DNA from: a virus
Lineage: Duplodnaviria; Caudoviricetes
Reading direction: 5' to 3' (one strand)
DNA length: 64,000 nt
Virus record (IMG/VR): IMGVR_UViG_3300027566_000003
This document shows, in pieces, positions 1-52,700 of the stretch. The position numbers and the translations under genes are program-made. How positions within the stretch are numbered: the stretch's first letter is position 1; each line of letters opens with the position of its first letter. The notes below the pieces were generated by a model. That model was given only the letters and a program-made list of their open reading frames with translations, was not told where the DNA came from and ran no database searches.

Positions 1-610
1 TATTCCAAAATACATTTCTATGTCCAGAAGTATTGTTTTTATTTTTACCATTTTGTCTATTTTTAAGATTTAATGAATTACTAGTACATCTCAAATTATC
101 TTTACAATTCTTTAATGAATCTCCGTTCTTATGATCAACTTTTATATTCTTGTCATTAACTCGCATAATTAATTTAGTTAAGGCTAAATTTCTAGTCATA
201 TATTTTTTAGTTGCAATGTCACAAATAGTTAAAGTTGTAGTTATATAGTATCTTCCTCTATCTAATCTTGCAAACCATGATAAATCTTTTACTAAATCTA
301 ATTCTTCAGTATCTATTTCAACATCTATCCTTCCTCCTTTCTTACTATTTACAATCATTATTGTTTTATCACTATTAACTATATATTCATTTCTTGTAGA
401 TTTAGGTTTATATGTATTGATGTCATTTACTTTCCTATTTAAATATTCTTCATTAACATCAAATTTCTCAGATAAAATCTTTAAACATTTGTCAGGTACT
501 TTTTCTCTTCTAAACCAATCCCATATAGTACCAGGACTTACTCCAATTTCTTTAGCAAAATTAGTAATATGAATGTCTCTATCTCTAATTAACTCTTCAA
601 ATCCAATCAA
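1..610 (-). CDS. HTH-fused HNH homing endonuclease (3' end runs off the window)
   Basis: Manual translation from TTG at 610, which overlaps the TGA of the upstream gene: MIGFEELIRDRDIHITNFAKEIGVSPGTIWDW (XRE-like HTH)...VDHKNGDSLKNCKDNLR...NNTSGHRNVFWN (HNH followed by the start of an AP2-like region). Confidence 0.85.
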   Translation of the reverse strand, partial: MIGFEELIRDRDIHITNFAKEIGVSPGTIWDWFRREKVPDKCLKILSEKFDVNEEYLNRKVNDINTYKPKSTRNEYIVNSDKTIMIVNSKKGGRIDVEIDTEELDLVKDLSWFARLDRGRYYITTTLTICDIATKKYMTRNLALTKLIMRVNDKNIKVDHKNGDSLKNCKDNLRCTSNSLNLKNRQNGKNKNNTSGHRNVFWN

Positions 611-3600
611 TTATTATATTCTCCTTTTTCAGTATAAAACATCTCTCGAAGTGTAATAATATCTTTCCTTAATACTTCTTTAGTTTGATGCCTTAACCAT
701 CCATAAAACTCATTAGCTAGAGGTGTGGCTAAAGAACTAGTATATTTAGTATATCCATTCCTAGAAACGTCCTCTTTAACACTTCTCATATGTTTCCAAA
801 AACCATAATACTGCAATTTTATTTTAGTCATAAATCCAACATTATCTTCTAAAACAAATCCTTCGATATATTGCCCCTTATATTTATAGTCATCTGCGGT
901 TACTTCTTCATACCATTGATAGAATTCTCTCCAATTATCTAATATCTTTGCTTTTACTTTCAAAGGTATATTATATTTATTTGAAAACAACTGTATTTCT
1001 TCATATGATTTTTTCTTTGGTTCATTGATATCATTCTCTACAATTTCTAATAATACTAAATGAGGGAAAATATATTTAATCATATGAGGATCATTAGTGG
1101 GATCAATTACTTCAAATACTAAAGTTGATTTTTGTTCTTTGAGATATTCCTTTATCTCTGATTGCTGGTCTAGAGTAAGAGTATCATTAAATATATCTCT
1201 AAAATATCCTGCAAATTCACTATTAGGATTTGATTTTGAGCTAATTAATAATTCATCTCGACTAGAATCATACCCTACTAAACCTAAGAACCCATTGTAT
1301 TTTACCCATGCCGTTACAGGGAATTGGAATACATTTTTAAGATTATCTAGTTTGACATTCTCTCTTTGATTGACGTTAAAGAATTTTTCATAGCTACGAG
1401 CTACCACTTCTCCAGTTTCAATATTAAAAAATAATCCTCTCGCTTTTATAGTTTGTTCATCCCATATATTTTTATAGAATGCATCTTTTGTAAAATTAAA
1501 AGAAGATATGTGACCGAATTTAGATTCTCTGACATATCTATTCGCTCTTAGTTTCTCTATTAATTCCATATTAGAAACTACAATCTCTTCGGATTTAATT
1601 GATTCAATTTTCTCTTCAATAGGCTTAAAGATATTATTTTTAACCTCAATAGTATTAAATCCTTTGTCATCTAATGTGACAATCCTTAAGTACCCTCCAA
1701 ACTCACATTTTCCTTCGAGGCAAAAACATCTTTCATTGATTTGAATTGGAGAATCTGCCACGTTCCTATGACCGTGGATTTGGTAATAATTATTTGGAGT
1801 TGAATTAAGAAATCTACCATTGACCATTTCCATTTCTTTATATTCTCCAACTCCTTTGATCAATTGTTCTGTGGCAAGAAATTCAAATCTTTCTGGTATT
1901 GTACTGATACCACCATGAGTAACAACTACTACTTTATTATTATATGTATAATATGCCAACTGTCTTAATTTTCTATAGAATATTCTTAATTTCTTCTTAT
2001 CTATTTGCAATTTATTCAACTCTCTTTTGGTAACTTGCTCAAATTCTTTACTCTTTGTTGGCATGTCGTTAGAATAGTCCCACAAATGACAATTACCAGT
2101 AATAATAACCCTACCATCAAGTCTAGTAATCAAAGTTCCTTTAGACATTGTGCAACAATAAGTCAAATTATTATATTCTTCTTCCGTAACCGTTACTGGA
2201 TGGTTAACACTTCCATAATAAAATATACTCGCAACATATTGATATTTTCCATTAGAAAAACCACTTCCTTCTTTATAATCATATTTACAAATAATTCCGT
2301 TTTTTACGCACATTTCTTGAACAATATCTATATTTTGACTGTTAATTGTTCTCCACTCAATATTATTGGCTTTTAAATATCCGTCTGATTTTATTAATGT
2401 ATCTAAAAATATAGACACTTGTCTTTGATTAAAGTATTTCCATTCGTTAGGTATTAATCTTTCATTATGTATTTTATTGAATATATCTCTAGCATATTCT
2501 CCATATATTCTTATGTAATAGGGTTGTACTCTATTTAAGTCACTCATTTTTGCTTTTTGAAAAGTATAAGGTATGTCCATTCTATCCAACAATTGCTTAA
2601 CACTTTTTATTTTTCTTTCTTTGCTAAATTTAAATTGGATTCTCTTTTTAATAGAATTTGGATTACCTTTTATATTATCCACAATTGTAGAATCCATTAT
2701 TACCCATGTTAATAATCTAATCCAATCATCTTCTATATTAACTACATTATCATTTGTATACCCCCATAGAGTAAAATCACGTTCTTCTAAATTATGTTTA
2801 TTCAAAAGATCTTTTGCTTTAACTTTTTCTCCTTTATATATTATATCATGATTAGGCGTAACCTTATGTCTGATATTATGACTATTGAAATTGATTATAG
2901 TATTTGATTCTTTTTTAATTGTTTCAATTGGGTTATCAAAACTAATTTCTTTTGATATGAGGTCATATTGTGCCACCACATCTTCTTTTGTAATATTTTC
3001 TATAACTTTCCAGCCATCTTTTGTAAGTATTTCAGTTCCTTTTGCTAAACATTCATGGTTCCCTTGTAAAAATATCACATTTAATTTATCCATAACTGAA
3101 AACAAGTAATTAAGTAATTCTACATTCTCAATTCCTCGATCAACATAATCACCAACAAATACATATAGTTCATCTTCTTTTAATTCTCCACCTAAATATT
3201 CTTGCAAGACGGTATTACATCCATGCAAATCTCCAATATGATGAATCTTTTTATAATTAGAAAAATCTAAAGGTGAATATGTAATTGTGTCCCAAAATTC
3301 TTCTGGTTTAATAGCTTTTACTCCACTAGAAATCTTTTGAGACTCAAATCTAGCATACATATTGTCAATTACAAAATCATGCACTACTTTATAATCAGGT
3401 TTCCTATTTTGATTTCTTTCTTTACAAACTTCAATAGGAACATCTGTCATATCAACACAAATGATTCTGTATCTATATGTTTCTGCCATACTTTTATATC
3501 GATTTAATTCAACTGTTTTAGAATTAGTTGCATCAACAACTACAAATTCTCCACGAATCATTCTTTGTTCTAGAATATCAAATAACAATTCCCAAACTTT

Positions 3601-4728
3601 TTTATCATTCTTTTGACTAATTCCATACCTTCCGTCAGTAGTCATTATGGGAGACTGTAGTAGTAACCTAATATTGTCTGCACTTAAAGCATATTGTTCT
3701 AAATTATTATCTTTAATAAATGTACTCTTGCCACAATTACCAGTAATATTTATATGACCATCTCTTCGTAAAACCAACATACCACTTGGAACAGTAAAAC
3801 AATACTTATGTCCATCTAGTGTTTTATATTCTTTAATTATTTTATCCTTATATTCTTCTCTCCCTTTTGTAGATATTCCTACCAAATTATAAGAACATTT
3901 ACTCACACGATAAGTAATGGGTTTGTCTTCTCTTTCATCAATAGATATACCACTTTTATAACCAGTAGATGAAAAAACATATTGAATAAAATCAGCATCT
4001 TGTTTATTAGTAGTATAATAAGCAATTGAGTTGTCTTGTTTATTAATCGAACCATCCCATTTTATACATTCATCACTAATTATATCTAAACACTTTCTCG
4101 ATAGGTTATACCAATTATGAGGAAAATTTTTTATTCTCAATGGTGATTTGAACATAAAATTAATGTACCCTTCAACATTTGTCTCATTGTATATTTTTTC
4201 TTCAAAATCAATATTGCATTTATTTAATAAAAATCTTATTCTTTCTATTTTTCTTTGTTTTTTAATTCTTATTCTACATCTATTGGTGTCTCTAGGATAA
4301 TTGCCATCTGCACAAATAGCAACTGTCAATCTTAATTCAAATTCGTTAAGTTCTGAATTTTCATTACCATATGTATTAAAAGTAGTTATAAATTTTCCTC
4401 TGAAGCCATGATTGTTTTTTAAATGTTGTTTATAAACATCTGAAAAAACTTTTTTATTTATATTGCCTTTTGAACTTATATATACTAAATTATGATCCAA
4501 AGAAACACATTGACTAACTCCTTGTGTTTGAATTAAATACAAATTGTCTTCTTTATATTTGTGATATTCCAAGGGACTCACCAACTCAGAGCTTCCGTCG
4601 TCATTATATTGTAAAACTTTATCTCCTTCAGTATATTCTGATATTCTTTTCCATTCTACTCCATTAAAATATTCCGTGTCACAGTCTACACAAGCTGGAG
4701 CACCCCTAAATAATGTTAATATCCTCAA
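607..4728 (-). CDS. Polynucleotide kinase / metallophosphoesterase / T4 Rnl1-type RNA ligase fusion with two inteins (1373 aa precursor, 734 aa spliced)
   Basis: After intein removal: P-loop GAPA|CGKST; phosphoesterase motifs GDLHG, GDYVDRG, GNHE, HGG, HGH; ligase motifs KARGLFF, RSYEKFFN, KYNGFLG, FEVI, EGFVL, KIK. Confidence 0.9.
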   Translation of the reverse strand: MRILTLFRGAPACVDCDTEYFNGVEWKRISEYTEGDKVLQYNDDGSSELVSPLEYHKYKEDNLYLIQTQGVSQCVSLDHNLVYISSKGNINKKVFSDVYKQHLKNNHGFRGKFITTFNTYGNENSELNEFELRLTVAICADGNYPRDTNRCRIRIKKQRKIERIRFLLNKCNIDFEEKIYNETNVEGYINFMFKSPLRIKNFPHNWYNLSRKCLDIISDECIKWDGSINKQDNSIAYYTTNKQDADFIQYVFSSTGYKSGISIDEREDKPITYRVSKCSYNLVGISTKGREEYKDKIIKEYKTLDGHKYCFTVPSGMLVLRRDGHINITGNCGKSTFIKDNNLEQYALSADNIRLLLQSPIMTTDGRYGISQKNDKKVWELLFDILEQRMIRGEFVVVDATNSKTVELNRYKSMAETYRYRIICVDMTDVPIEVCKERNQNRKPDYKVVHDFVIDNMYARFESQKISSGVKAIKPEEFWDTITYSPLDFSNYKKIHHIGDLHGCNTVLQEYLGGELKEDELYVFVGDYVDRGIENVELLNYLFSVMDKLNVIFLQGNHECLAKGTEILTKDGWKVIENITKEDVVAQYDLISKEISFDNPIETIKKESNTIINFNSHNIRHKVTPNHDIIYKGEKVKAKDLLNKHNLEERDFTLWGYTNDNVVNIEDDWIRLLTWVIMDSTIVDNIKGNPNSIKKRIQFKFSKERKIKSVKQLLDRMDIPYTFQKAKMSDLNRVQPYYIRIYGEYARDIFNKIHNERLIPNEWKYFNQRQVSIFLDTLIKSDGYLKANNIEWRTINSQNIDIVQEMCVKNGIICKYDYKEGSGFSNGKYQYVASIFYYGSVNHPVTVTEEEYNNLTYCCTMSKGTLITRLDGRVIITGNCHLWDYSNDMPTKSKEFEQVTKRELNKLQIDKKKLRIFYRKLRQLAYYTYNNKVVVVTHGGISTIPERFEFLATEQLIKGVGEYKEMEMVNGRFLNSTPNNYYQIHGHRNVADSPIQINERCFCLEGKCEFGGYLRIVTLDDKGFNTIEVKNNIFKPIEEKIESIKSEEIVVSNMELIEKLRANRYVRESKFGHISSFNFTKDAFYKNIWDEQTIKARGLFFNIETGEVVARSYEKFFNVNQRENVKLDNLKNVFQFPVTAWVKYNGFLGLVGYDSSRDELLISSKSNPNSEFAGYFRDIFNDTLTLDQQSEIKEYLKEQKSTLVFEVIDPTNDPHMIKYIFPHLVLLEIVENDINEPKKKSYEEIQLFSNKYNIPLKVKAKILDNWREFYQWYEEVTADDYKYKGQYIEGFVLEDNVGFMTKIKLQYYGFWKHMRSVKEDVSRNGYTKYTSSLATPLANEFYGWLRHQTKEVLRKDIITLREMFYTEKGEYNN
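2092..3051 (-). mobile_element. Intein 2 (320 aa) inserted directly after the phosphoesterase GNHE motif
   Basis: Begins C-LAKGTEILTKDGWK and ends TYCCTMSKGTLITRLDGRVIITGN followed by a +1 Cys; LAGLIDADG-like blocks LLTWVIMDS and FLDTLIKSDG. Confidence 0.93.
3736..4692 (-). mobile_element. Intein 1 (319 aa) inserted in the kinase Walker A motif
   Basis: Begins C-VDCDTEYF and ends HKYCFTVPSGMLVLRRDGHINITGN followed by a +1 Cys; LAGLIDADG-like blocks LTVAICADG and ECIKWDGS. Confidence 0.93.
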
Positions 4729-4948
4729 TCTTCTTTCCTCCTTTTAATCCCAACGAAATCCACATTTCAATTGCTTTCTAATAGACTTTCAATGGCATAT
4801 CTAACTCTTTGAAAAGCACTTGCTTCAGCAGAATGAACCATATTCCCTATCATATTATTTTCATCTAAACATTTGAATGCATAACCATAGTACCTATCTT
4901 CTTCTTTAGTTACATAATCTAAGAGTTTTTCTAAATTATTATCCATTA

Positions 4949-5242
4949 TTACCTCTCCTCCACTTCATTTATTTCTTGTTGACTCATATACTTCCTTGCC
5001 GTAGGGCAAACATATGTAATATTAACTTGTTTAATCTCGCCTTTATATATAAACCAAGTAGAAACAATAAGATTAAATATTGTCGAAAATCCAAATAAGA
5101 TCAAAGCAAGTTCTGCCTTTGACACAATACCTTCTTGTGGTATTGCTAAATTAAATAAGCATCCAAGCAACATACTTAAAGAAACGCTCCAAATTACACT
5201 CACTGGATTTTTACTTAAATTGTAATTAAACCTTTTAAACAT
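4949..5242 (-). CDS. Small membrane protein, two predicted TM segments
   Basis: Hydrophobic stretches VIWSVSLSMLLGCLFNLAI and LALILFGFSTIFNLIVSTWFI; good SD (AGGAGG). Confidence 0.6.
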   Translation of the reverse strand: MFKRFNYNLSKNPVSVIWSVSLSMLLGCLFNLAIPQEGIVSKAELALILFGFSTIFNLIVSTWFIYKGEIKQVNITYVCPTARKYMSQQEINEVEER

Positions 5243-5279
5243 GATTCACCTCCTTTCATAACCAGACCAAAACAATATT

Positions 5280-8200
5280 TTATTTACTCTGACTGTTCCA
5301 ATCTAAACAAACTTCTTTTCCATTAACCAAAATACCGCCACAATTACAATATAATTTATATTCTGTTTCCGAATAATAATTTTTATATGATTGTGAACAA
5401 GTAGCACATGTAATATTATTTTTCTGACACCATGATCTTAAATTAATTATATTCATTTTTAAAACTTCCTTTCTACCAATCAAATATTTGATTCAAACCA
5501 TTACAATAGTACCACCATAATCACCATAATATGTACAAACACATCCTACAACCTTATATTTAAACATTACTTCTACTTCTTTGTCATCTGTTGGGACAGC
5601 AAACATTTTCCCAATTGGCCTGATTGTATGTAATTTTCCATCTAATGTTTGAACATAAATATCTCCAATAATATTTTTATCTTCTGGTAATTTACCAATA
5701 CCATTATTAAGTTTGATATTCAATCTATGGAATATTTCCACTTCTTTCTTTTCTTCTTTATAAATATTCCAATCGTTAAGTCTTAATATACGATTACTCA
5801 TATTAAGTAATCCTGGTCTTGGATGAAAATGATCATCCCACATTATGCTTCCGTTAACACATTTTACTTTCCATAATTCATCTCTAACAACACAATGGGC
5901 TTTTAAGTTTGGATTTTTTCTCAATTCATTTACCATTTCTAATGTATTCATTTATATAACCCCTTCCATTATCTCTATCACACTTCCTACAAAACAATGA
6001 AATCATTTCACTCTCAAAATATTCTCCACAATGACTACAATTTCCACCAAACATTATTTTATGTTTATCTCCATCATATATAATATATAATCCATATTTC
6101 TCAGATTCTATTGCAAAATCTAAAATATATTTACCTCCAACTCTACCACAACCTTCACATGGATGAGAAATATGATTTAAACAACCTCTGTGTTTACATG
6201 GTTCTCCTTCTCTCATATGTTTAATCCTCCTTTCTTATTCTACTGACTCATAATTTTTAGAATCTACCCAACTCCAGCCTCCAGAATAAATTAAGAATTC
6301 GGTTATTTCTTCTGTCCATGAATTATCATATTCTCTTTGCTTTTGTTCATAAACCCTAACTCCATACACTTCATATGTTTCTTCCTGTTTATCTTCGTCA
6401 TCTCTGTAATACGTATAACTTTTATATTTTATTTTTGGCATTATTATTTTCACTCCATTCTAATAGGTTAAAACGATTATTTTACCTTACCAATCCTCTT
6501 CCCAGTTCTCCTACAAACCACATTTCCTTTCCAATAAACTAATTCAGATTCAAAATGAAGTCTTTTGCATTTAGGACAAAACAGATCTCTCACTCCTATC
6601 CACAATTAATAAACTCATTAACATAATGATCGACCAAAGTGCCATCCCATTGAATTGTATATACCTTATCTGTGGAATCGAATTCTACATCGCAATCCAT
6701 ACAAAACCACGTTGTGAGTGTCACTTTGTTTGTTTTTTCACTATGGCAAGCCGGACAAATATGTACTTTCTTATCATTTTTTGTGTTCCTCATTTTTGTC
6801 TCTGCTTTTGTTTTGTTAGCCATTTATGTATTCCCTCCGTATTTTTATTTTCTACTTATAGTATATATTGTTAAGGTTTAAAAGTCAAAATAATTTTGAA
6901 AGATCATTATGATAAATGGGTAACGGCATAGTTATTATCGCAAATATGATTGTAGATATCACTTTAACTTTATTAAATTTAATATGAAACCCATAATTGT
7001 TTGAAAATCCATAAAACAGGGCAATCAATACAAAATATAATAATAAGAACATTAATATACCACCTCTTTGTTAAAAAACTGATTAAAATGAGTATTCTAT
7101 TCATTAATTTCTTCATTTGTTTTATCGTCGATTAATTCATAATCACTCCCTTTCATATACTTATTAACTTTTGCAATAAATACACATGAATCATTATCTG
7201 GATGCTCACCTATAATGATATCTTCTTTAATATCATTATACTTTTCTATTGCGTCTAATTCTTTTTCAAATTTATAAATTCTAGGATAATAATCCATATC
7301 ATGTCCAACAATCCACATAATTGTTTATCACTCCTTCCTCGAAATCAAAGTTTTAAAGTGTTTACAAAAATCTAACCACCCATTCCCCATATTTAAAAAT
7401 ATTTTCTATTCTAGGATCTAATATATTCTTATACATATTATTTTCCCTGTCTGTAGGATAAAATTTACCTTCATATAACAATTGAAAACGTAATTTTATA
7501 ATTCTATCTGCACATCCATCTCCTCTATCTTTATAAATTTCTAAATTACCATATCCATCTTCAATTAAATTATCAATCTTTTCTTTTAAATCATTGATAT
7601 TCATTAATTATACCCCCTCCAATACTATCAATTATTAGTTTTATTCGTCTATCGGATTATTTGTTAACTCTTTATTATTATCAAATATTTGTAAAAATTT
7701 GTTGCCATCTGTATTAGTATCCACAACAATCATAGTAAAATCTTCTGCCCTATAAACAAACTTAGGTAGATGTCTATAGGTAAAAATCTCATTACTATAA
7801 TACTTTTCCGTTTGGAAATCATCTTTTGTCTTTGCAAAGTAAACTTCATTTGCGTTTTCATACCAAAAATATTCCCTACTATCATCAAGAGGTATCACTT
7901 TCCAATCATCGACATACCCAAAATAATCATAAATTTGTTTTTGAATGGTAAAATAATCATCTAAAAGTTTCATGAGAATTCCTCCTTAAAATAGCATAGA
8001 CTCCTCGTTTGTTGGGATTGGGAATAAATTATTCCCAATCCTTATCAATAACATCTACAGCCTCTTGAACCGTGTTAAAATATTCTTCTCCTGAAATTGT
8101 TTTAGTCATATATTTGAGACTATCGCCTTTAGATGGATTAGTTTCTTTTAAAATCCAAATGTCAATACCTCTATGATTATGAACAGAGACGTATTCACCT

Positions 8201-9495
8201 TTATCAGTTGTCATAGTTTTCATAATAACACTCCTTTTTTAATATAGTAAGTTCATTATAAACTATTTAAATTAATTTATAAAGTTGTAAATGAAGACAT
8301 ATTGCCAAATGAAACTAGATTTTATTGGAACGCCTTCATTAATTCTTGAATATTTACATGGTATTGATTCACAGTTTCTTCTAATTTTAAACGAATTTTT
8401 TCTTCTATTTCAACAATACTACATTCTTCACAAAAACATGCAAAAGAGATATATTTAGTATTATTGTTAATATCCGAAAATATCTTATTCAACTCTTCTT
8501 TCTTAAGTCTTTTTGTTCTCATTTCAGATTTAATTTCAAAATAATTTTTAGTTTCTTTAATGAAACTCCCATTCTCCTTTAATGAATCTAATTTCACTAT
8601 CCGCAAGTATTCCAATTAATTTATAAATTTTCACATTTTATCTCCATTCAAATTGCTTTTTCATTCCATGCATTTAGATACTAACTCAACAGCTATATTT
8701 AAACATTGAATGTAATATTTTTCGTTTCTTCTTCATTCATATCGGGAATTATTTGTCCTGTTTCTAAACTCAATCTTGGGACAACCTCACTTTTAAGATC
8801 ATTTAAGACAGAAATAACATCTTTCTTTTGAAAGTCTTTATTTTTATCATTCCATGTTAATCGCATTATGACTTTACATTTCCCTTCATTATGGATACAA
8901 GAAACTTCTTTTACTGTATAATTTGTAATATCATTATTCCTAATAAATTCATTTATTACTTTTTCAAAATAAAGTGTGTCAATTGAATTATAACCATCTA
9001 CAGACCAACTCTTTACATCTCCAATAAATTCAAATTCTTTTGTATTCATATTAAATATTTTCTCCTTCCGATAAAACCACACTTTTAATGCCTATTAAGG
9101 CATATCTTTTTTAATTCTACTACATATTCAATCATTGTATTAATTGCAATTTGTTCACCATCGTATTCATTGCAATCACCTGTATAAGTAACTATAACCC
9201 CTATATTATTTAACTGATGATAAAGAATATTCATCTCATCTTCCAATATATTTCCAAGATGCTCCATATCGGTAACAATACTACTTTTATATACATTTAA
9301 ATCATCTAATTGTGCTTTGCTTATTGTATCAATAATATAACCACCTGTAGAATACAAATATGGATTGACTGTATAATAATTGTCTGACTTCCCATGTACT
9401 TTAAATGGATTATCAAAATCAATTTCAATAATATCTTTGCTAACAGTATGCATAATATTCAACTCTGGAATAAAAACTGTCATATAAGTTTTCAT
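5280..9495 (-). other. Array of ~14 short hypothetical phage ORFs, several with CxxC zinc-ribbon motifs
   Basis: Tightly packed minus-strand ORFs with SD sites, e.g. 6596..6823 CPAC...CMDC and 5926..6216 CSHC...CRKC. Confidence 0.75.
6860..6888 (-). promoter_or_regulatory. sigmaA-type promoter
   Basis: TTGACT-17 bp-TATACT upstream of the 6823 ORF. Confidence 0.75.
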
Positions 9496-9511
9496 AATTT
9501 ATCAATCCTTT

Positions 9512-9979
9512 CTAACTAACCTTTAACCACTCAGGAACATTCCCTTTATACTGTAGTATATCCTTCTTCTCACCCACATAATAAGCCCTATATGCCTTTA
9601 CAACATCTTCATGCCTATACTCTATTGGCATTGCTTGAGCAAACTTCGTTAACCCCTTATCAGGCAAATTAGGAACATCTAAACCTAAAATAACATCTCC
9701 TGATTTATGATCTTTGTTACCATATCTTTTTCTATATTCATCATATAAAGCTAGACCCAAATTTCTTAACCATAACCAATTAGATAAACTTTCTCTTGTC
9801 CATAAGGAGCATGGGTGGTTTTTGTGCGTGAGTTTATAGGGAGATTTGTGAGATTCATTTGTAAAGTAATAAGTACTACATAAAATTTGTGATGTTTCCA
9901 ATAGCATTTTTACAACATGCTTATCACAATGATATTCAGCACATTTTTTAATGTCTAAGTCTAGGACAAATATGTTCAT
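9512..9979 (-). CDS. Pyrimidine-dimer DNA glycosylase (T4 endonuclease V / DenV-like family)
   Basis: MNIFVLD...CAEYHCDKHVVKMLLETSQILCS...YKLTHKNHPCSLW...EYRKRYG.K.HKS...FAQAMP..Y...DVVKAYRAYY; likely start is Met24 of the ORF-track entry. Confidence 0.85.
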   Translation of the reverse strand: MNIFVLDLDIKKCAEYHCDKHVVKMLLETSQILCSTYYFTNESHKSPYKLTHKNHPCSLWTRESLSNWLWLRNLGLALYDEYRKRYGNKDHKSGDVILGLDVPNLPDKGLTKFAQAMPIEYRHEDVVKAYRAYYVGEKKDILQYKGNVPEWLKVS

Positions 9980-10579: not shown

Positions 10580-11230
10580 TCACTCCTCACTATCACCAAG
10601 CATTTTAAATTCTTTCTGCAACCCCTCTAGTCCTGCTGAAGTAACCTTATGCATAACAAAACCTTCAAATTCACCTTTCGCTTCAAGCACAGTTTTGTCC
10701 ATTTGCTCATTAAAACTACTTTGAATAAAAGGAACGTTACTTTCAATTTCTTGTCGCAACATCTTAATGCCACTGAGTATCGCTTCTTTATCTGCTTTTG
10801 TTGGTGCTTTTTTCTCACTCAATAACGCTTCAGCTTGCTGAGTAAGCATCCTAAGTGACTTTCCGATCTTTAGCATTTCTTTTTCAAACTCTTTCTCAAA
10901 TTCCTGCCGTTTATCAAATTGTGGGCAGTCTTCAATCATTCTACCATCTAATCGTCTAAGTGTGACAGGTACTCCATCTCCCACATTCATTGAAGTAATC
11001 GCCTCTGTAAATTGTGAATATGACATTTCAACTTCAATATAAGGTTTTGTATTAGCATGAAACCAATCCCTATTTAACATTCGATCAATTTTTGCAGGAG
11101 CAATTTTGAGTTTAATTGTGTGACTATGTTGAATAGAACTTCCAAATAAATTCTGGCTAGAACTACATGAACTCCTTGCGAGTCCTAACATTGCAAAACT
11201 TTCATGTTCAATAGTTGTACGATCATCCAT
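10580..11230 (-). CDS. Conserved hypothetical protein
   Basis: 216-aa ORF with strong SD; HESFAMLGLAR...LFGSSIQH pattern resembles mobile-element hypotheticals; function not recognised. Confidence 0.7.
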   Translation of the reverse strand: MDDRTTIEHESFAMLGLARSSCSSSQNLFGSSIQHSHTIKLKIAPAKIDRMLNRDWFHANTKPYIEVEMSYSQFTEAITSMNVGDGVPVTLRRLDGRMIEDCPQFDKRQEFEKEFEKEMLKIGKSLRMLTQQAEALLSEKKAPTKADKEAILSGIKMLRQEIESNVPFIQSSFNEQMDKTVLEAKGEFEGFVMHKVTSAGLEGLQKEFKMLGDSEE

Positions 11231-11284: not shown

Positions 11285-11347
11285 TTAGTGATAATCATGC
11301 TTTCTAATTAATGAAGTTCTTTCTTGTTCAAACCGTTCTCTTAACAT
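11285..11347 (-). CDS. 20-aa small ORF (MLRERFEQERTSLIRKHDYH)
   Basis: ATG at 11347 preceded by GAAAGGTG SD; lies directly downstream of the structured element at 11380-11520. Confidence 0.4.
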   Translation of the reverse strand: MLRERFEQERTSLIRKHDYH

Positions 11348-11379
11348 ATATACCACACCTTTCAATTTTTAAATAATTT

Positions 11380-11520
11380 CCCCCTAAGTTCATTTCCTTG
11401 GGGGTCGGAGCGTCTTCATCTGTGATACACCAGATGTTGCCCATAACACTTAACTGTCTTATATTAGTCAGATATAAGATTAGCTCACCTTTCACATCTC
11501 AGTACGGGTGATTTGGGCAA
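11380..11520 (-). ncRNA. Candidate structured RNA (three-way junction plus two hairpins)
   Basis: Nested stems TTGCCCA/TGGGCAA, TCACC/GGTGA and TCTTATAT/ATATAAGA, then CATCTG/CAGATG and CCCCCAAG/CTT(A)GGGGG; GC-rich for this genome; intergenic. Confidence 0.55.
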
Positions 11521-12176
11521 ATGTAATTTTCTATTTTAAAAAATCTAACACATTCCCAACATCGACAGATAAAATATCTGATATTTTATTCCACTCTACA
11601 AATTCCGTGTCAAATTCTTCATCTTCTGTGTAAAATAAACCTTCTGGAACAATACTTGTGATTACGCCTGAATGTTTATATGCACCACTATTAATAAACG
11701 TGATATTCGCTCCAATAAAGATTATGAATGATTTGTTTTCTTCAGGAACAGTTATAATTCTACAATCTCTCATAATTACTGTTTTCATCCTAACATTCCT
11801 CCTCTAAAATATCTTTCAATTCCTCAATCACACTTTGAATCCTCATAATCGTCACATGTGGTAATACACCATGTTTATCGCTCGATAATTCTAAAAACTC
11901 AATGGCCTTTCTGATAAATGCGATATCGCTTTCTCTTACCATTATTATACACTCTCCTCCCAAATAAATCAATAGTTTAGAATATTTTATTTTCCACTTT
12001 ATTATACTACCACAGAAAAACAAATATTACAACTATTCTTCATCAATTATTCTCATAATTTTATGTCCATATTTTCTACAATGACTAATTGCCTCATCTC
12101 TGAAATAAAAAGCATCGATCCAAACATCAGTGTCATACATTTGAAACAGGAAAATGATTATGGGTAATTCAAATCC

Positions 12177-12384: not shown

Positions 12385-13837
12385 TTAAAATATATTCCTT
12401 AACATTATTTTCAACTCTGAATTTTTTAATCGCTCTATCTCAATATCATGTAAAACTTTAAAGCTTTGAAATTTCTCAAAACATAAATCCCTATTAATTG
12501 TTTCTAAATCATCATTAACATTCATAATAAGAAAACTGCTATATAAGTCTCTCTGTATCTTAAATTCACAAAAATCATTCCATCTTTCGTCTAGTTCCTT
12601 TTTTTGTGAATTGGTCATTAATATGATTATATTGACTAGCTTTCACTTTCCAAGTATCAATTTTCTTTAAATTCTTATCAATCCATTTTAATTTATTGTC
12701 CAATATAGTCAAAAACATAGCTGGTGCTTTATTTGCTAATGATTTTCCAAATCTTTTTTTCTTGTTAAACTTACCTGTCTTTTTATCGACAGTAGTATTC
12801 TTAGCTCTAGCTTGTAACCCCTTGTAGCTCATTGTCTCAACCTTAATATCATTACCCAATGTTAAAATATAATTAGCAAGTCGATTATGAGATTGCTTTC
12901 TAATTTCTCTTTGCTTTCGTTGCAATTCTTTTAACTTCATTTGAGTTTTTATATAATGATTGGATTTGATCCATTTGTTTTTATCTTTGGTATTAATTGT
13001 ACCGTTATCGTTAAACTTATTAGGATTAGTAGAACGTCTGGAACGATCCATTTTTCTTTGTAATACTCTCTTTTGCTTTTCAATATTTTGTACTTCTGGA
13101 ACTAATTCAAGTAATTTGACTTCACTATTAGAACAATAAGCTACAGTTTGGGTTCCAATGTCTAAACCAACTACACCATCATTATTATAATGTTTAATTT
13201 CGCCTGTATCTTTGTTGATCTTTATTGGAGGAATTCCATCTAAAACTAACTGAACATAATAATGATATTTACCTTTAATTATTTCTCGTTTAATACGGCA
13301 ATATTTTACTCTATTTTGTAAAGACATATGAACATATATATCATTCTTCTTGATGATCACAGGAATTTTTAGTCCTGCAAACAATATATTATTATCTCTA
13401 AACCTAATACCTTGTTTATTAGTTTTTCCTTCAATGGAATTTAATTCACCATAAGACTTATATTTAATCTTTTTAGCTTTATGAAATATTAATCCTTGGA
13501 AAGCATTAAATGCTCTTGTAGCAATTTTTTGAACAGTCATAGCATCAATATTAAAATATTTTCCCATTGGTTTAATAAAGTCATGAAGTGAATACTCTGT
13601 TAATTTATACTTTTTGTTCAAAGTATTAAATATTTTATTTCTATCTTTACCTTTATATTTACAATTCTTTTGGTATTCTTTAGATTCTCTCATATGGTTA
13701 TATCTTTTATGCAATTCAGTAATGCAAGCATTATAAATTTTTCTACATTTCTCAAAATTCTTATCCAAGACATCATCTTGAAATTTTTCTGTTTTTAGTG
13801 GAAGAGTCAAAACAAAATTAGACAGAGTATTCACCAC
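12385..13837 (-). pseudogene. tnpB: TnpB RNA-guided nuclease with +1 frameshift in an A7 run at ~12599-12605
   Basis: RuvC motifs GLDIG, IKVETM and (second frame) QRDLYSS; KELDERWNDF continues in the 12385..12618 frame, matching the intact copy at 32107. Confidence 0.85.
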
Positions 13838-14196: not shown

Positions 14197-14970
14197 TTAT
14201 AAATATTTCTCGATATATTCCCTGTCTTGTGTAAAAATAGGAATATTTTCATCAATTACCCACCTGCTTCGCATAATCCCTTCTTTATCATATTGCTCTT
14301 TTACAATACAAATTCCACGCTTTTGATAAGTTGGCAAATCATTAAAGTTAATTTCTTTCTCTTGAAATAACATCTCTTGAATTTGATTACATGTTTTATT
14401 TTGTAGTTGTTTGTGACTAAAGTTTGCCTGACCAACCATTTGTATAGCATTCCTAGTTGCGTCTTGTTGTCTCCAAATAAAAGCGTTGCATACTTCCTCT
14501 TTTGGAATATTATAAACTCTACTATCAAACATTGCAGTTCCGACTCTTGAATAATATCTTTCCCATTGCCTACCTTCCTCGCCACTATTGACTTCAAGAT
14601 TATTTACTTTTTCTCTAAAACCTTCATTAAAAGCCATAGTTGCCATACTTGCAGAGATAGAAACCATCTTTTGTATGTTTTTATCAAACCATGCTTGAGT
14701 AGTAAGAGCATCGTAATCAGTAATTAGTAAAGTTATTTCATCACTTTGAGTATACGCAATTTTACAACCCATAACATTCTTACAAAGATACTGTGCTGTT
14801 TCCCACATACTATTCATTAATATCATATCAAATGGTCTTTGGAATCCTTTAGTGAATGTATGAAATGCTTTGCCATCAAGTCTGATTAATGTAGGCATTC
14901 TTTTTGTTAGATGTTTTCTCTCAATATTTTCATAACCCTTCATTCTATCTCCAAGATTATCTTTGCTCAT
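14197..14970 (-). CDS. thg1: tRNA(His) guanylyltransferase Thg1-like protein (3'-5' polymerase family)
   Basis: DRMKGYE, RLDGKAFHTFT, YTQSDEITL, KMVSISAS, FDSRV, WRQQDATRN; start MSKDNL with SD GGAGG. Confidence 0.92.
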   Translation of the reverse strand: MSKDNLGDRMKGYENIERKHLTKRMPTLIRLDGKAFHTFTKGFQRPFDMILMNSMWETAQYLCKNVMGCKIAYTQSDEITLLITDYDALTTQAWFDKNIQKMVSISASMATMAFNEGFREKVNNLEVNSGEEGRQWERYYSRVGTAMFDSRVYNIPKEEVCNAFIWRQQDATRNAIQMVGQANFSHKQLQNKTCNQIQEMLFQEKEINFNDLPTYQKRGICIVKEQYDKEGIMRSRWVIDENIPIFTQDREYIEKYL

Positions 14971-16015
14971 TTTTATCTCCTCCATACTTCCATTTACTCA
15001 TTCGTTCTCTATCTTTCAATATCTAAAAGACTATAAAATATCTATTTCGAAGTGTATTATTTTCTGATTGTTACTCCAATTAAACCTTTAATAATTTCTT
15101 CCTTTTCTTTAGTATAAATTCTTTTTAATTCTAATTCATAATTAATTGTATTAGTCTCAAGAAAATCAATAAATTTTCTATCAAATTCCATTCCGTCTTT
15201 AACTTCAATTGTAATATTGACATTATATTTTTCTATTTGATTGTTTTTAGTTTCATCAAATTTCTCTAAACAACTTTCTAACCAGGCGTTTCCCCACGAA
15301 CCACTTTTCTCATCAATTTTAAGTTTGTAACACAATGGATAACTACTACTAAGTTGTTCAATAATTCCAATCTTTCCTATGTTGTCATGATTCATTGCGT
15401 CTATTATTTTAACTTTATCTCCTACTTTAAATTTATGCATTGATAACACTTCCTTTGCTATTTTTATAACATAAAACTCTACTTTCGTATGCTTTCCCAT
15501 TTACCAATAGGACAATCTGGAAAATCCCCTTGATGACTAATCGCCCAATTTAAGTCACTGAAAATCATCTTATTATTTTGTAATTTACAATGATAATCTA
15601 TTGAATCAATTGTTCCTGTTTCATAAACTATCGTATAAGAGTGTAAACAATTATAGCATAACTGTGGCTCTAAATAATGTTCACATATAATTTCTTTTGG
15701 TATGAATTTATTTTGTTTATTACAAAAAGAATAAAACTCCCATATACCATTTTGTTTATCATACTCATCTTTAAAATATCTGCATTCTTTATCAGAACAA
15801 GTTTCTTCCAACTTATTTTACCTCCAATTCCATCGAAACTTTTGATTTATCCCCTAACCTAATCTCATAATTAACTCAAATATATTTTTACACTTTTTAC
15901 ATTTAATCCTTATCATTTCACTTGTTTTCAATGGGTCATTATTTAGATTTTCATAAGTTTGGACTGTATCACAATCCGCACAAATCCATTCTAATTTTAT
16001 CATTCTTTTCACTCC

Positions 16016-50800: not shown

Positions 50801-52700
50801 TATAAATGATAATATCGCTTTACTATTCCTTTTTTCTGCTCTTTCATATCCTGAGCAAGTTATATTTCTTGTTGTTGCTTCTCCATAACCGTTGACAAAC
50901 GTTTTATTATCTTCCGTTTTATTATTTTCGTTTGTTCTATTCGTATCTTTTACCATTCTTTCTAATTCTAATAACTCCTTAATCATACCCTTTAGTTTTT
51001 TACTTCCTTCCCTCCACTCTGCTAAAATTGGATCAGCTTTTTTGTTTAATGGATCTTCATGTGTTGGCATCCAAGAAATTGAATTGTATAGTGCTATATT
51101 TTTATTTCTCTGTTCTTCTATTTTCTTTTTTAATTCTTTTATTCTCATTATACTAACTCCTTTTCTGTTATAACTTCATTTTTATTAATACAAACAATAT
51201 CATTTTGAAATCCAATTAAACTAGGATGAAATTGTAATTTATCCTTACAATTAGGACAGTTTTTTGTATATTTACATTCTTCAATCGTTCCTTCTGTACC
51301 TGCCCACACCCAAATACCTCCTGCATAATTTGAACGCTTATTAACTAATAATTTTGACATTAAAATCATTCCTTTCTTAAATACAATAAATTTTACTTTT
51401 CATTTGGTAATTTCTTAATCAATCTTACTTGATTAACTATAAAGAAAGGAAACCTAAACATTCGTCTTTACCAATTAAAGTCATTTTAACTAACCATTTT
51501 TCACTAGCGTAAATTTCTGGTTCCGTAGTTGTATCCCATGAATATTCGTTACCATCTTGATCCCTAAAGGTATAATTCCATGCCTTTCCTGGGAATCTAT
51601 CACTTGCCATATGGTCATACCAAACTATTACAGGTAATTCAATCCTTTTCTTTTCTACTAGTTTCATAATCTTACACCTCCTTGTTATTTTGATACCACC
51701 TAGCAGGATTGTTATAAACCCTGCTAACGCTCTGAGCTTAAGGCGTATTATACCGACTCAGACCAGTGTTAATGTTTTACATCAAATATTTCTTTCCATT
51801 CTTCATTTTCACAAACATATTCTTCGCTTTTAAGATTAACAGAGTGAAAATTATAATCTTTATCAAAATGTCCATAATACATTTCACCCTCGATAAAACC
51901 ATGAACTGACTTTTTACATATTAACTTAATCATTTTTTAAAACTCCTTTCTATTCCTAGCAAACTTGCTATTGATTGGGTTAAAATTATCTAAACATTCT
52001 TTTTTCTAATAAAATATTATGCTCATCATTAAAAGCATCTGATATTGCTTTTCTTACATATTCGCTATCCATTGCTTTCTTAAATACCTTATCAAAGTCT
52101 TTTTCTGACATTCCCCTGTCAATATATTCATCGAATAATCCCTGTTTAACATCCTTTAAACTCATTTTTAATCATCCTTTCACCCAATGAATTAATAGAT
52201 TTATTGGTATCAAATAACCCTCTCTAATTCCTCTTCCCAATATCCATTACTAGTATTTTCAGTAATTTGAACTACAAATATCTTTCTACCTTTCATAGAT
52301 TTTTGAATTTCGACAATTTCTCCTTTAAGCATACTTTTTCTAATTTTAACTTTATCCCCAATTTTGAAATATTCTATAGTCTCAAAATCCTTCCCAAATA
52401 ATATTTTACATTCCTCATATGAAAAAGGTTCCTCAATAAAAATATCACTATTGTCAATAGTAACGCAATATTCTACATCATCCAATGGAAGAACACATTC
52501 TGATTTATTCTCGATAACTGCAATATCTCCTACCACAATATCTTGGAATATATCAATTGATGAATCATGATTGCTCCAATTAATATCTTTAACATTTACA
52601 ATAGGTAATTTAATTGACATAATAATAATTCCTTCTTTCACTTAATTTAATCGCTGAACCATATAACCTCGGCTGTTATAAAAAATTTGACATATACAAA

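Follow-up and report, generated by a model that had tools for sequence, protein, structure and literature searches.

What kind of RNA occupies the 300-nt gap between an 85-aa ORF (11531-11788) and a 216-aa gene (10580-11230) in this phage DNA, and what might it do for the message that carries it? An earlier note on the same DNA had described four features in the gap, a closing stem, a loop, a hairpin and a GC stem, and had read them as parts of a compact, so far unassigned structured RNA. All four are present, but they lie on the minus strand, which is the coding strand of nearly all genes in the window (by which we mean the whole stretch of 64,000 nt that was analysed, with a G+C content of 29%). 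Comparison between homologues delimits a conserved block from approximately 11522 to 11356. The RNA itself is positioned after a stop codon and ahead of the ribosome-binding site of small genes that differ from locus to locus. A structured RNA is found, in other words, where annotation had 'hypothetical' small genes only. The element and its neighbours are arranged as follows:

11531-11788, minus strand: upstream 85-aa ORF, with its stop codon about 10 nt ahead of P3; a homologue stands upstream of the element in locus L123
11380-11521, minus strand: conserved RNA core, P3 to P9, about 142 nt, defined by a 17-sequence alignment (A2) and consensus fold; family model R1, 144 bits; model R2 match at 11376-11527
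11356-11363, minus strand: Shine-Dalgarno sequence of the downstream small ORF
11285-11347, minus strand: 20-aa ORF with its ATG at 11347, not conserved; unrelated small genes take this place at other loci
10580-11230, minus strand: 216-aa gene (phrog_6452, function unknown); in five loci it follows the element at a distance of 0.1-0.9 kb

The 20-aa ORF, with its Shine-Dalgarno sequence, is where it had been reported to be, and a purine-rich ribosome-binding site is present 14-35 nt past P9 in all 17 homologues. No terminator-like site was called near the element on its strand and the nearest same-strand promoter-like site is at 11944-11972, which probably places the RNA inside the transcript of an operon, in agreement with the polycistronic message that had been supposed. 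Comparison with Rfam, which had been suggested as a check, yielded no match on the element either at the gathering threshold or at E <=10, and the same was true of a tRNA/tmRNA scan, of blastn with the element and two of the introns described below against 50,697 phage records, and of a search for further copies within the 64-kb window.

The first homologue (L002) came from protein-guided loci around the 216-aa gene, the element being present in one of the 80 loci that carry this gene. A 16-mer scan for homologues gave mostly chance matches, while searches by pattern in IMG/VR and in JGI metagenomes of groundwater type account for the 17 distinct homologues, most of which derive from one sample series. 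Covariation among homologues had also been named as a check on the earlier reading, and here the outcome was clear. The RNAalifold consensus of the 17 sequences contains 36 pairs, of which 11 show double changes. When the named structure, including its pseudoknot, is compared with the same strands slid against each other, 97.1% of cells pair compared with 34-45% for slid partners, 11 pairs are changed on both sides compared with 1-4, and none of 500 shuffles reached the observed pairing values. Folded alone, the 156-nt stretch of the window has a minimum free energy of -42.2 kcal/mol, compared with -31.5 +/- 3.5 for shuffles (z = -3.1). The frequency of G.U pairs indicates that it is the minus-strand transcript that is the folded molecule. 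Its helices, in 5' to 3' order of first strand, are these:

11514-11520, minus strand: P3, 5' strand UUGCCCA, paired with 11437-11443; compensatory U-A to C-G change in L126
11486-11511, minus strand: P4-P5 hairpin; P4 is 11507-11510 with 11486-11489, P5 is 11502-11504 with 11493-11495, and the hexaloop L5, UGAGAU, is 11496-11501
11452-11485, minus strand: P6 (AGCU/AGUU) and P6a, with a variable loop; conserved AA bulge at 11480-11481; three covarying pairs
11446-11450, minus strand: P7 pseudoknot, 5' strand AGUGU, complementary to 11409-11413
11437-11443, minus strand: P3, 3' strand UGGGCAA, paired with 11514-11520
11417-11436, minus strand: P8 hairpin CAUCUG/CAGAUG, of variable length; two covarying pairs
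11409-11413, minus strand: P7 pseudoknot, 3' strand ACGCU, preceded by a short J8/7, AAG (11414-11416)
11380-11404, minus strand: P9 hairpin; octaloop L9, GAAAUGAA, at 11389-11396; bulged A at 11385

The closing stem and the CAUCUG/CAGAUG hairpin are thus as first described, and two of the original features need redrawing. The loop said to contain CUGAGAUG does hold that motif, but it is in fact a 3-bp P5 closing the UGAGAU hexaloop; the GC stem is real, but it is extended by AAG/CUU, so that its loop is GAAAUGAA and not the full 12-mer. Among the homologues the 5' strand of P3 is mostly in the register UUUGCC. Two pairs covary in P4 and one in P5, around A-rich J4/5 and J5/4 segments and an invariant L5; P8 takes forms that include CAUCCAAU/AUUGGAUG and CACCCA/UGGGUG; and two pairs covary in P9 (AAG/CUU to ACG/CGU and to AUA/UAU). 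Approximately 80 alignment columns are invariant, including all junctions and both key loops, L5 and L9, in the latter case with reference to the flanking A pairs, the middle of the loop varying (AUG, ACG, UAGG). Variation is concentrated in the stems, as compensatory pairs, and in the loops of P6a and P8. The P7 pseudoknot, of 5 bp, joins a strand 2-3 nt ahead of P3' to a strand 4 nt ahead of P9, and is nearly invariant in the family apart from a U.G pair that becomes a U-U mismatch in L123 and L142. No compensatory change in P7 occurs within the 17-member family, and hence the support for this helix comes entirely from the comparison between lineages given below.

Three other arrangements were considered and ruled out. 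A pseudoknot formed by L5 with the 5' arm of P8 conflicts with the covariation of P8, which L5 does not follow. A pairing that would join the J8/7 region to GAGC after P4 shows no covariation, and P9 is no intrinsic terminator, since it has no U tract and none was called. The P6a loop is inverted (UGACUA to UAGUCA) in L082, L124, L133 and L142 relative to the window and L002, as expected of a template-switch inversion of a hairpin, and its sequence as such is therefore probably not read.

The fold is far from unassignable, since each helix has a single counterpart in the P3-P9 core of group I introns: P3 corresponds to the closing stem, P4-P5 to the UGAGAU hairpin, P6-P6a to the hairpin after it, P8 to the CAUCUG hairpin and P9 to the GC stem. 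The core stands in canonical order, with its P3/P7 pseudoknot, and the earlier expectation of a compact RNA of ribozyme type, built for tertiary folding, is borne out to that extent. In group I introns L9 contacts P5, and the L5/L9 pair is therefore located where such a contact is expected. The earlier note had singled out the two loops as informative, and they proved to be so, since scanning viral contigs for both at suitable spacing recovered, besides the known copies, a second set of RNAs with other junction sequences but the same architecture, in phages of 33-56% G+C. All share a helix order in which a P3-type closing helix surrounds a junction that is followed through a UGAGAU hairpin, a hairpin with a 4-bp stem and AA bulge, a variable hairpin, a conserved linker and a GAAAUGAA hairpin. 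In both the element family and this second set an A/U-rich heptamer precedes P3. Several of these RNAs lie within phage capsid genes:

L159, 244-544: capsid-gene intron
L160, approximately 340-567: capsid-gene intron
L164, approximately 6800-7640, minus strand: capsid-gene intron
L165, approximately 4350-5300: capsid-gene intron
L169, approximately 13650-13830, minus strand: capsid-gene intron
L174, approximately 150-430: capsid-gene intron

In L159 a 301-nt insert splits the capsid ORF between GEQVG and LSIDTMVRN, a sequence that is uninterrupted in L160 (where the ORF is a Pfam phage capsid protein), and the consensus across the join is GEQ.G|L..DT.VRN. The terminal U of the L159 5' exon pairs with a G of the guide (GUGGGU with GCUCAC), and the same pairing of a terminal exon U with the G of a guide just ahead of the heptamer occurs in L160, L164 and L169, in each case at a site in the capsid gene other than that of L159. 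The inserts of L159, L160 and L164 end in G, the join in L164 restores a conserved N-terminal motif (KT.YE.RLL), and antisense homing-endonuclease ORFs lie within the inserts of L165 (HNH) and L164 (LAGLIDADG-like). The split ORF, the U.G guide pairing, the terminal G, the in-frame joins and the endonuclease ORFs together establish that these inserts in phage major-capsid genes are true group I introns, occupying several insertion sites. The standard Rfam model, RF00028, detects none of the capsid-gene introns; it likewise gives no match on the element at E <=10, which is weak evidence given that verified introns are missed too.

Some further members of this set may be noted. Approximately 150 nt after the first core of L169, on the minus strand, there is a second guide, heptamer and P3 start (CUGGAU..GUCCAG AUUAAAU CUCUUC), which suggests two introns of the L5/L9 type close together in one gene. 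In L170 (5270-5510) and L171, which carry the same element, an L5/L9 variant lies between genes of a 155-kb gut-type phage, directly preceding GAAGGAG and the ATG that opens an ORF of 21 aa; here a core without exons may have arisen a second time, independently. The P8 of L123 (approximately 9500-9530, minus strand) differs from that of L172 (approximately 2385-2412) at only two of 27 nt, a likeness that suggests exchange of modules between L5/L9 lineages.

That the element is kin to these introns is evident from several comparisons. Across five lineages the P7 strands, at the same positions, are AGUGU/ACGCU, GACUG/CAGUC, GACUA/UAGUC, GCAUA/UAUGC and G(A)ACAU/AUGUC; that is, equivalent 5-mers differ and yet stay complementary, with their spacing to P3' and to P9 unchanged. 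Model R1, which describes the element family, aligns full-length to the capsid-gene introns (E 0.003-0.15). In the opposite direction, model R2, which was built from five true introns alone, finds its best match in the 64-kb window at 11376-11527 (35 bits, E 3.4e-6; the next match has E 1.8), and it also matches L082 and L123. These E-values are partly circular, the intron relatives having been selected by their two loops, but the intervening helices were not selected for. Besides the helix order that it has in common with the capsid-gene introns and with RF00028 (P3, P4-P5, P6-P6a, P7, P3', P8, P7', P9, with the P3/P7 pseudoknot), the element shares with the capsid-gene introns the A-rich J4/5 and J5/4, the 4-bp P6 with its AA bulge, the heptamer, and the sequences of L5 and L9.

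Unlike those introns, the element is intergenic and approximately 142 nt long, and it lacks a P1 or internal guide, a U.G splice site, a terminal G and exons, whereas the true introns all show P1 with its U.G pair. Having no P1, no terminal G and no joinable exons, it lacks what defines an intron, though its fold is intron-like. In addition, J8/7 comprises 3 nt in the element but 6-7 nt in the true introns, and the active site may accordingly be crippled.

Our preferred reading, which we regard as probable, is that the element is an exon-less, miniature core of group I descent that acts in cis on a polycistronic mRNA. Transcribed within the message, after one cistron's stop codon and ahead of the ribosome-binding site that follows, its 142 or so nucleotides would fold into the P3-P9 core: P3 would close a junction holding the P4-P5 and P6-P6a hairpins, P8 and P9 would follow, and the 5-bp P7 pseudoknot would tie the segment preceding P3' to the one preceding P9. 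We infer that L5 (UGAGAU) would then dock on L9 (GAAAUGAA) in the manner of the L5.1-L15.1 pair of type B RNase P, clamping the fold. The element would have lost, or never have possessed, splice sites and a P1 helix for the substrate. The likeliest consequence for the message would be in processing or stability, with the element either marking or making the 5' boundary of the downstream cistron, and the guanosine-binding pocket of P7 may still serve a cleavage reaction.

A bolder version of the preferred reading is that the core is still catalytic without P1, as a natural ribozyme of about 142 nt that cuts or branch-caps its own polycistronic mRNA just upstream of the ribosome-binding site, or that cuts other RNA in trans. 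We consider this doubtful. The lariat-capping ribozyme GIR1, from the twin-ribozyme introns of Didymium and Naegleria, is reportedly also a group-I-derived core without P1, lying just upstream of an ORF and shaping the 5' end of that message. GIR1 is, however, said to be a eukaryotic RNA of about 190 nt, situated within another intron and equipped with P2, P2.1, P10, P15 and a defined branch site, and none of these is seen in the element, in which no conserved helices were seen outside P3-P9. Were catalysis to be demonstrated, no other working RNA of the group I lineage would be as small, and bacterial viruses would have an equivalent of the lariat-capping ribozyme of eukaryotes; activity of the core without P1 would show that selfish introns have been turned into viral RNA-processing tools.

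Another possibility is that the intron-derived core has become a riboswitch-like sensor, in which the P7 pocket binds a guanine nucleotide and P7 competes with pairing between a CUCC tail and the Shine-Dalgarno sequence. The invariant junctions are as in aptamers, and in 11 of the 17 members the minimum-energy fold does pair the Shine-Dalgarno sequence with the P7-3'/J7/9 segment, the duplex being strong in L081, L124, L126 and L128. In the window, though, this duplex (-6.2 kcal/mol) is no better than in shuffles (-5.7), and just four of 17 members stand out at the 5% level, in a control that favours the hypothesis since shuffling destroys the Shine-Dalgarno motif. As P9 and the Shine-Dalgarno sequence are also separated by a variable spacer (14-35 nt), and no ligand-related genes lie downstream, we regard a sensor as unlikely.

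It is very unlikely, in our view, that the element is instead a working self-splicing intron in an untranslated operon spacer, whose excision (of approximately 150-200 nt) would leave the upstream stop codon beside the ribosome-binding site downstream. In favour, the element has the core of the true introns, and the window offers a P1-like pairing with U.G (GAUUUUU with GAAAAUU), as do L081, L123, L128 and L132. Such pairings beside P3, with a terminal U.G, are however no more frequent than chance would provide, occurring in five of 17 members compared with 6.9 +/- 1.8 in shuffled flanks, and several members have no G at all for approximately 20 nt upstream of P3. At the other end, no G is conserved across the 17 members in the stretch that separates P9 from the ribosome-binding site, and L128 and L149 are without any G there. 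Nor are there evident exons to be joined: each upstream ORF is closed by a stop codon of its own, the genes downstream vary between loci and start independently, flanks are unrelated between loci, and the MKTYMTVF gene, which is downstream of the element in L002, occurs alone in the window at 9085-9495. A precedent for a spacer intron is the c-di-GMP-dependent group I ribozyme of a Clostridioides difficile 5' UTR, which is said to reshape a ribosome-binding site. The element resembles it in being a group I core in a leader beside a ribosome-binding site; unlike the element, the C. difficile ribozyme is reportedly full-sized, has P1, splices, and is paired with a riboswitch.

An IStron was also considered and rejected. 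In IStrons the ribozyme is 5', followed by same-strand ORFs of the tnpA/tnpB type inside the intron (PMC4227781). The window does contain a TnpB-like ORF (IS605 OrfB-type, phrog_506) at 12575-13837 on the minus strand, but this is approximately 1 kb upstream of the element and not downstream, and it recurs only in L143, as an 84%-identical copy, with no link to the element at other loci.

As improbable as a spacer intron is the reading that the element is a stranded, functionless remnant of an intron, which appears conserved simply because the phages that carry it are close kin. In favour of a remnant, related records of 121 kb and of 349 kb lack the element, and its identity between loci (75-85%) is comparable to that of the neighbouring coding gene. 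The pattern of change is not that of a remnant, since substitutions take the form of compensatory pairs in stems or fall in two variable loops, leaving the invariant columns, junctions included, untouched. The flanks, moreover, cannot be aligned across most loci, though the element can, and a single copy has been kept in each phage record searched whole, these genomes coming from several samples. A scan of a genome collection turned up one genuine but truncated copy, on contig JAJYWX010000032.1 (L154, 7581-7726), which lacks the 3' strand of P9; this indicates that the element can decay. The contig, which is from a metagenome-assembled genome, is 12.4 kb long with 30% G+C, and is binned with a genome whose relatives measure 0.6-1.5 Mb and carry a type A RNase P; the binning may be mistaken, or the hosts may be more varied than had been supposed.

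There remains the resemblance to RNase P, to which the earlier note had pointed, stating that one loop of type B RNase P RNA (L5.1) docks onto another (L15.1) and that both motifs occur here. That statement is right for L5.1, and for L15.1 the published pattern of conserved residues agrees with it. The P5/L5 consensus 12-mer of the element family, GUGCUGAGAUGC, is identical to P5.1 of Bacillus subtilis RNase P, being contained in nt 58-85 of B. subtilis P RNA as given by antisense oligonucleotides (PMC5066622). The conserved and essential residues of L15.1, A280, A281, A285 and A286, define a pattern AA-N3-AA (PMC5066622), which the L9 octaloop of the element fits, the comparison being at the level of this pattern. 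In type B RNase P the L5.1-L15.1 contact forms fast and drives compaction (PMC5066622; 10.1101/2020.03.21.001560). A relative of RNase P RNA, or a mimic of a host's type B RNase P, is scarcely credible all the same, because, despite the identical 12-mer and the L15.1-like loop, RF00011 and RF00010 gave no match on the element at E <=10, the element lacks the P4 of RNase P and its conserved regions CR-I to CR-V, and the same loop pair occurs in capsid-gene introns from phages whose G+C content reaches 56%. A search for RNase P in two whole phage records was also empty. What the two RNAs have in common is a hexaloop hairpin and a partner loop with two conserved flanking A pairs, which in the element sit at the ends of P5 and P9 within a group I core, and the range of 33-56% G+C among the phages argues against mimicry of the RNase P of a Firmicute host. 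The resemblance is best taken as a common loop-loop module, and not as kinship. Literature searches on the loop motifs and on an L5-L9 contact gave nothing relevant.

The apparent presence of the UGAGAU/GAAAUGAA pair both in type B RNase P and at L5/L9 of group I RNAs suggests that it is a portable tertiary module, useful for the prediction and design of RNA structure, for which the element offers a natural scaffold of approximately 142 nt in which to study the contact. The capsid-gene introns belong to a phage group I lineage missed by the standard Rfam model, and the capsid genes of metagenomic phages may, as a result, be mis-called as split, truncated or fragments. For jumbo-phage biology, the element is a compact and well-supported addition to the structured RNAs.

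Other features of the window also concern RNA. A Thg1-like tRNA-His guanylyltransferase (14197-14985, minus strand) and a 1373-aa kinase/phosphatase/RNA-ligase fusion (607-4728, minus strand) make up an RNA-repair set on the same arm as the element. The sole Rfam match in the window is a pistol self-cleaving ribozyme at 51694-51767 on the minus strand, which aligns full-length to RF02679 with 47.1 bits, compared with a gathering score of 34.5.
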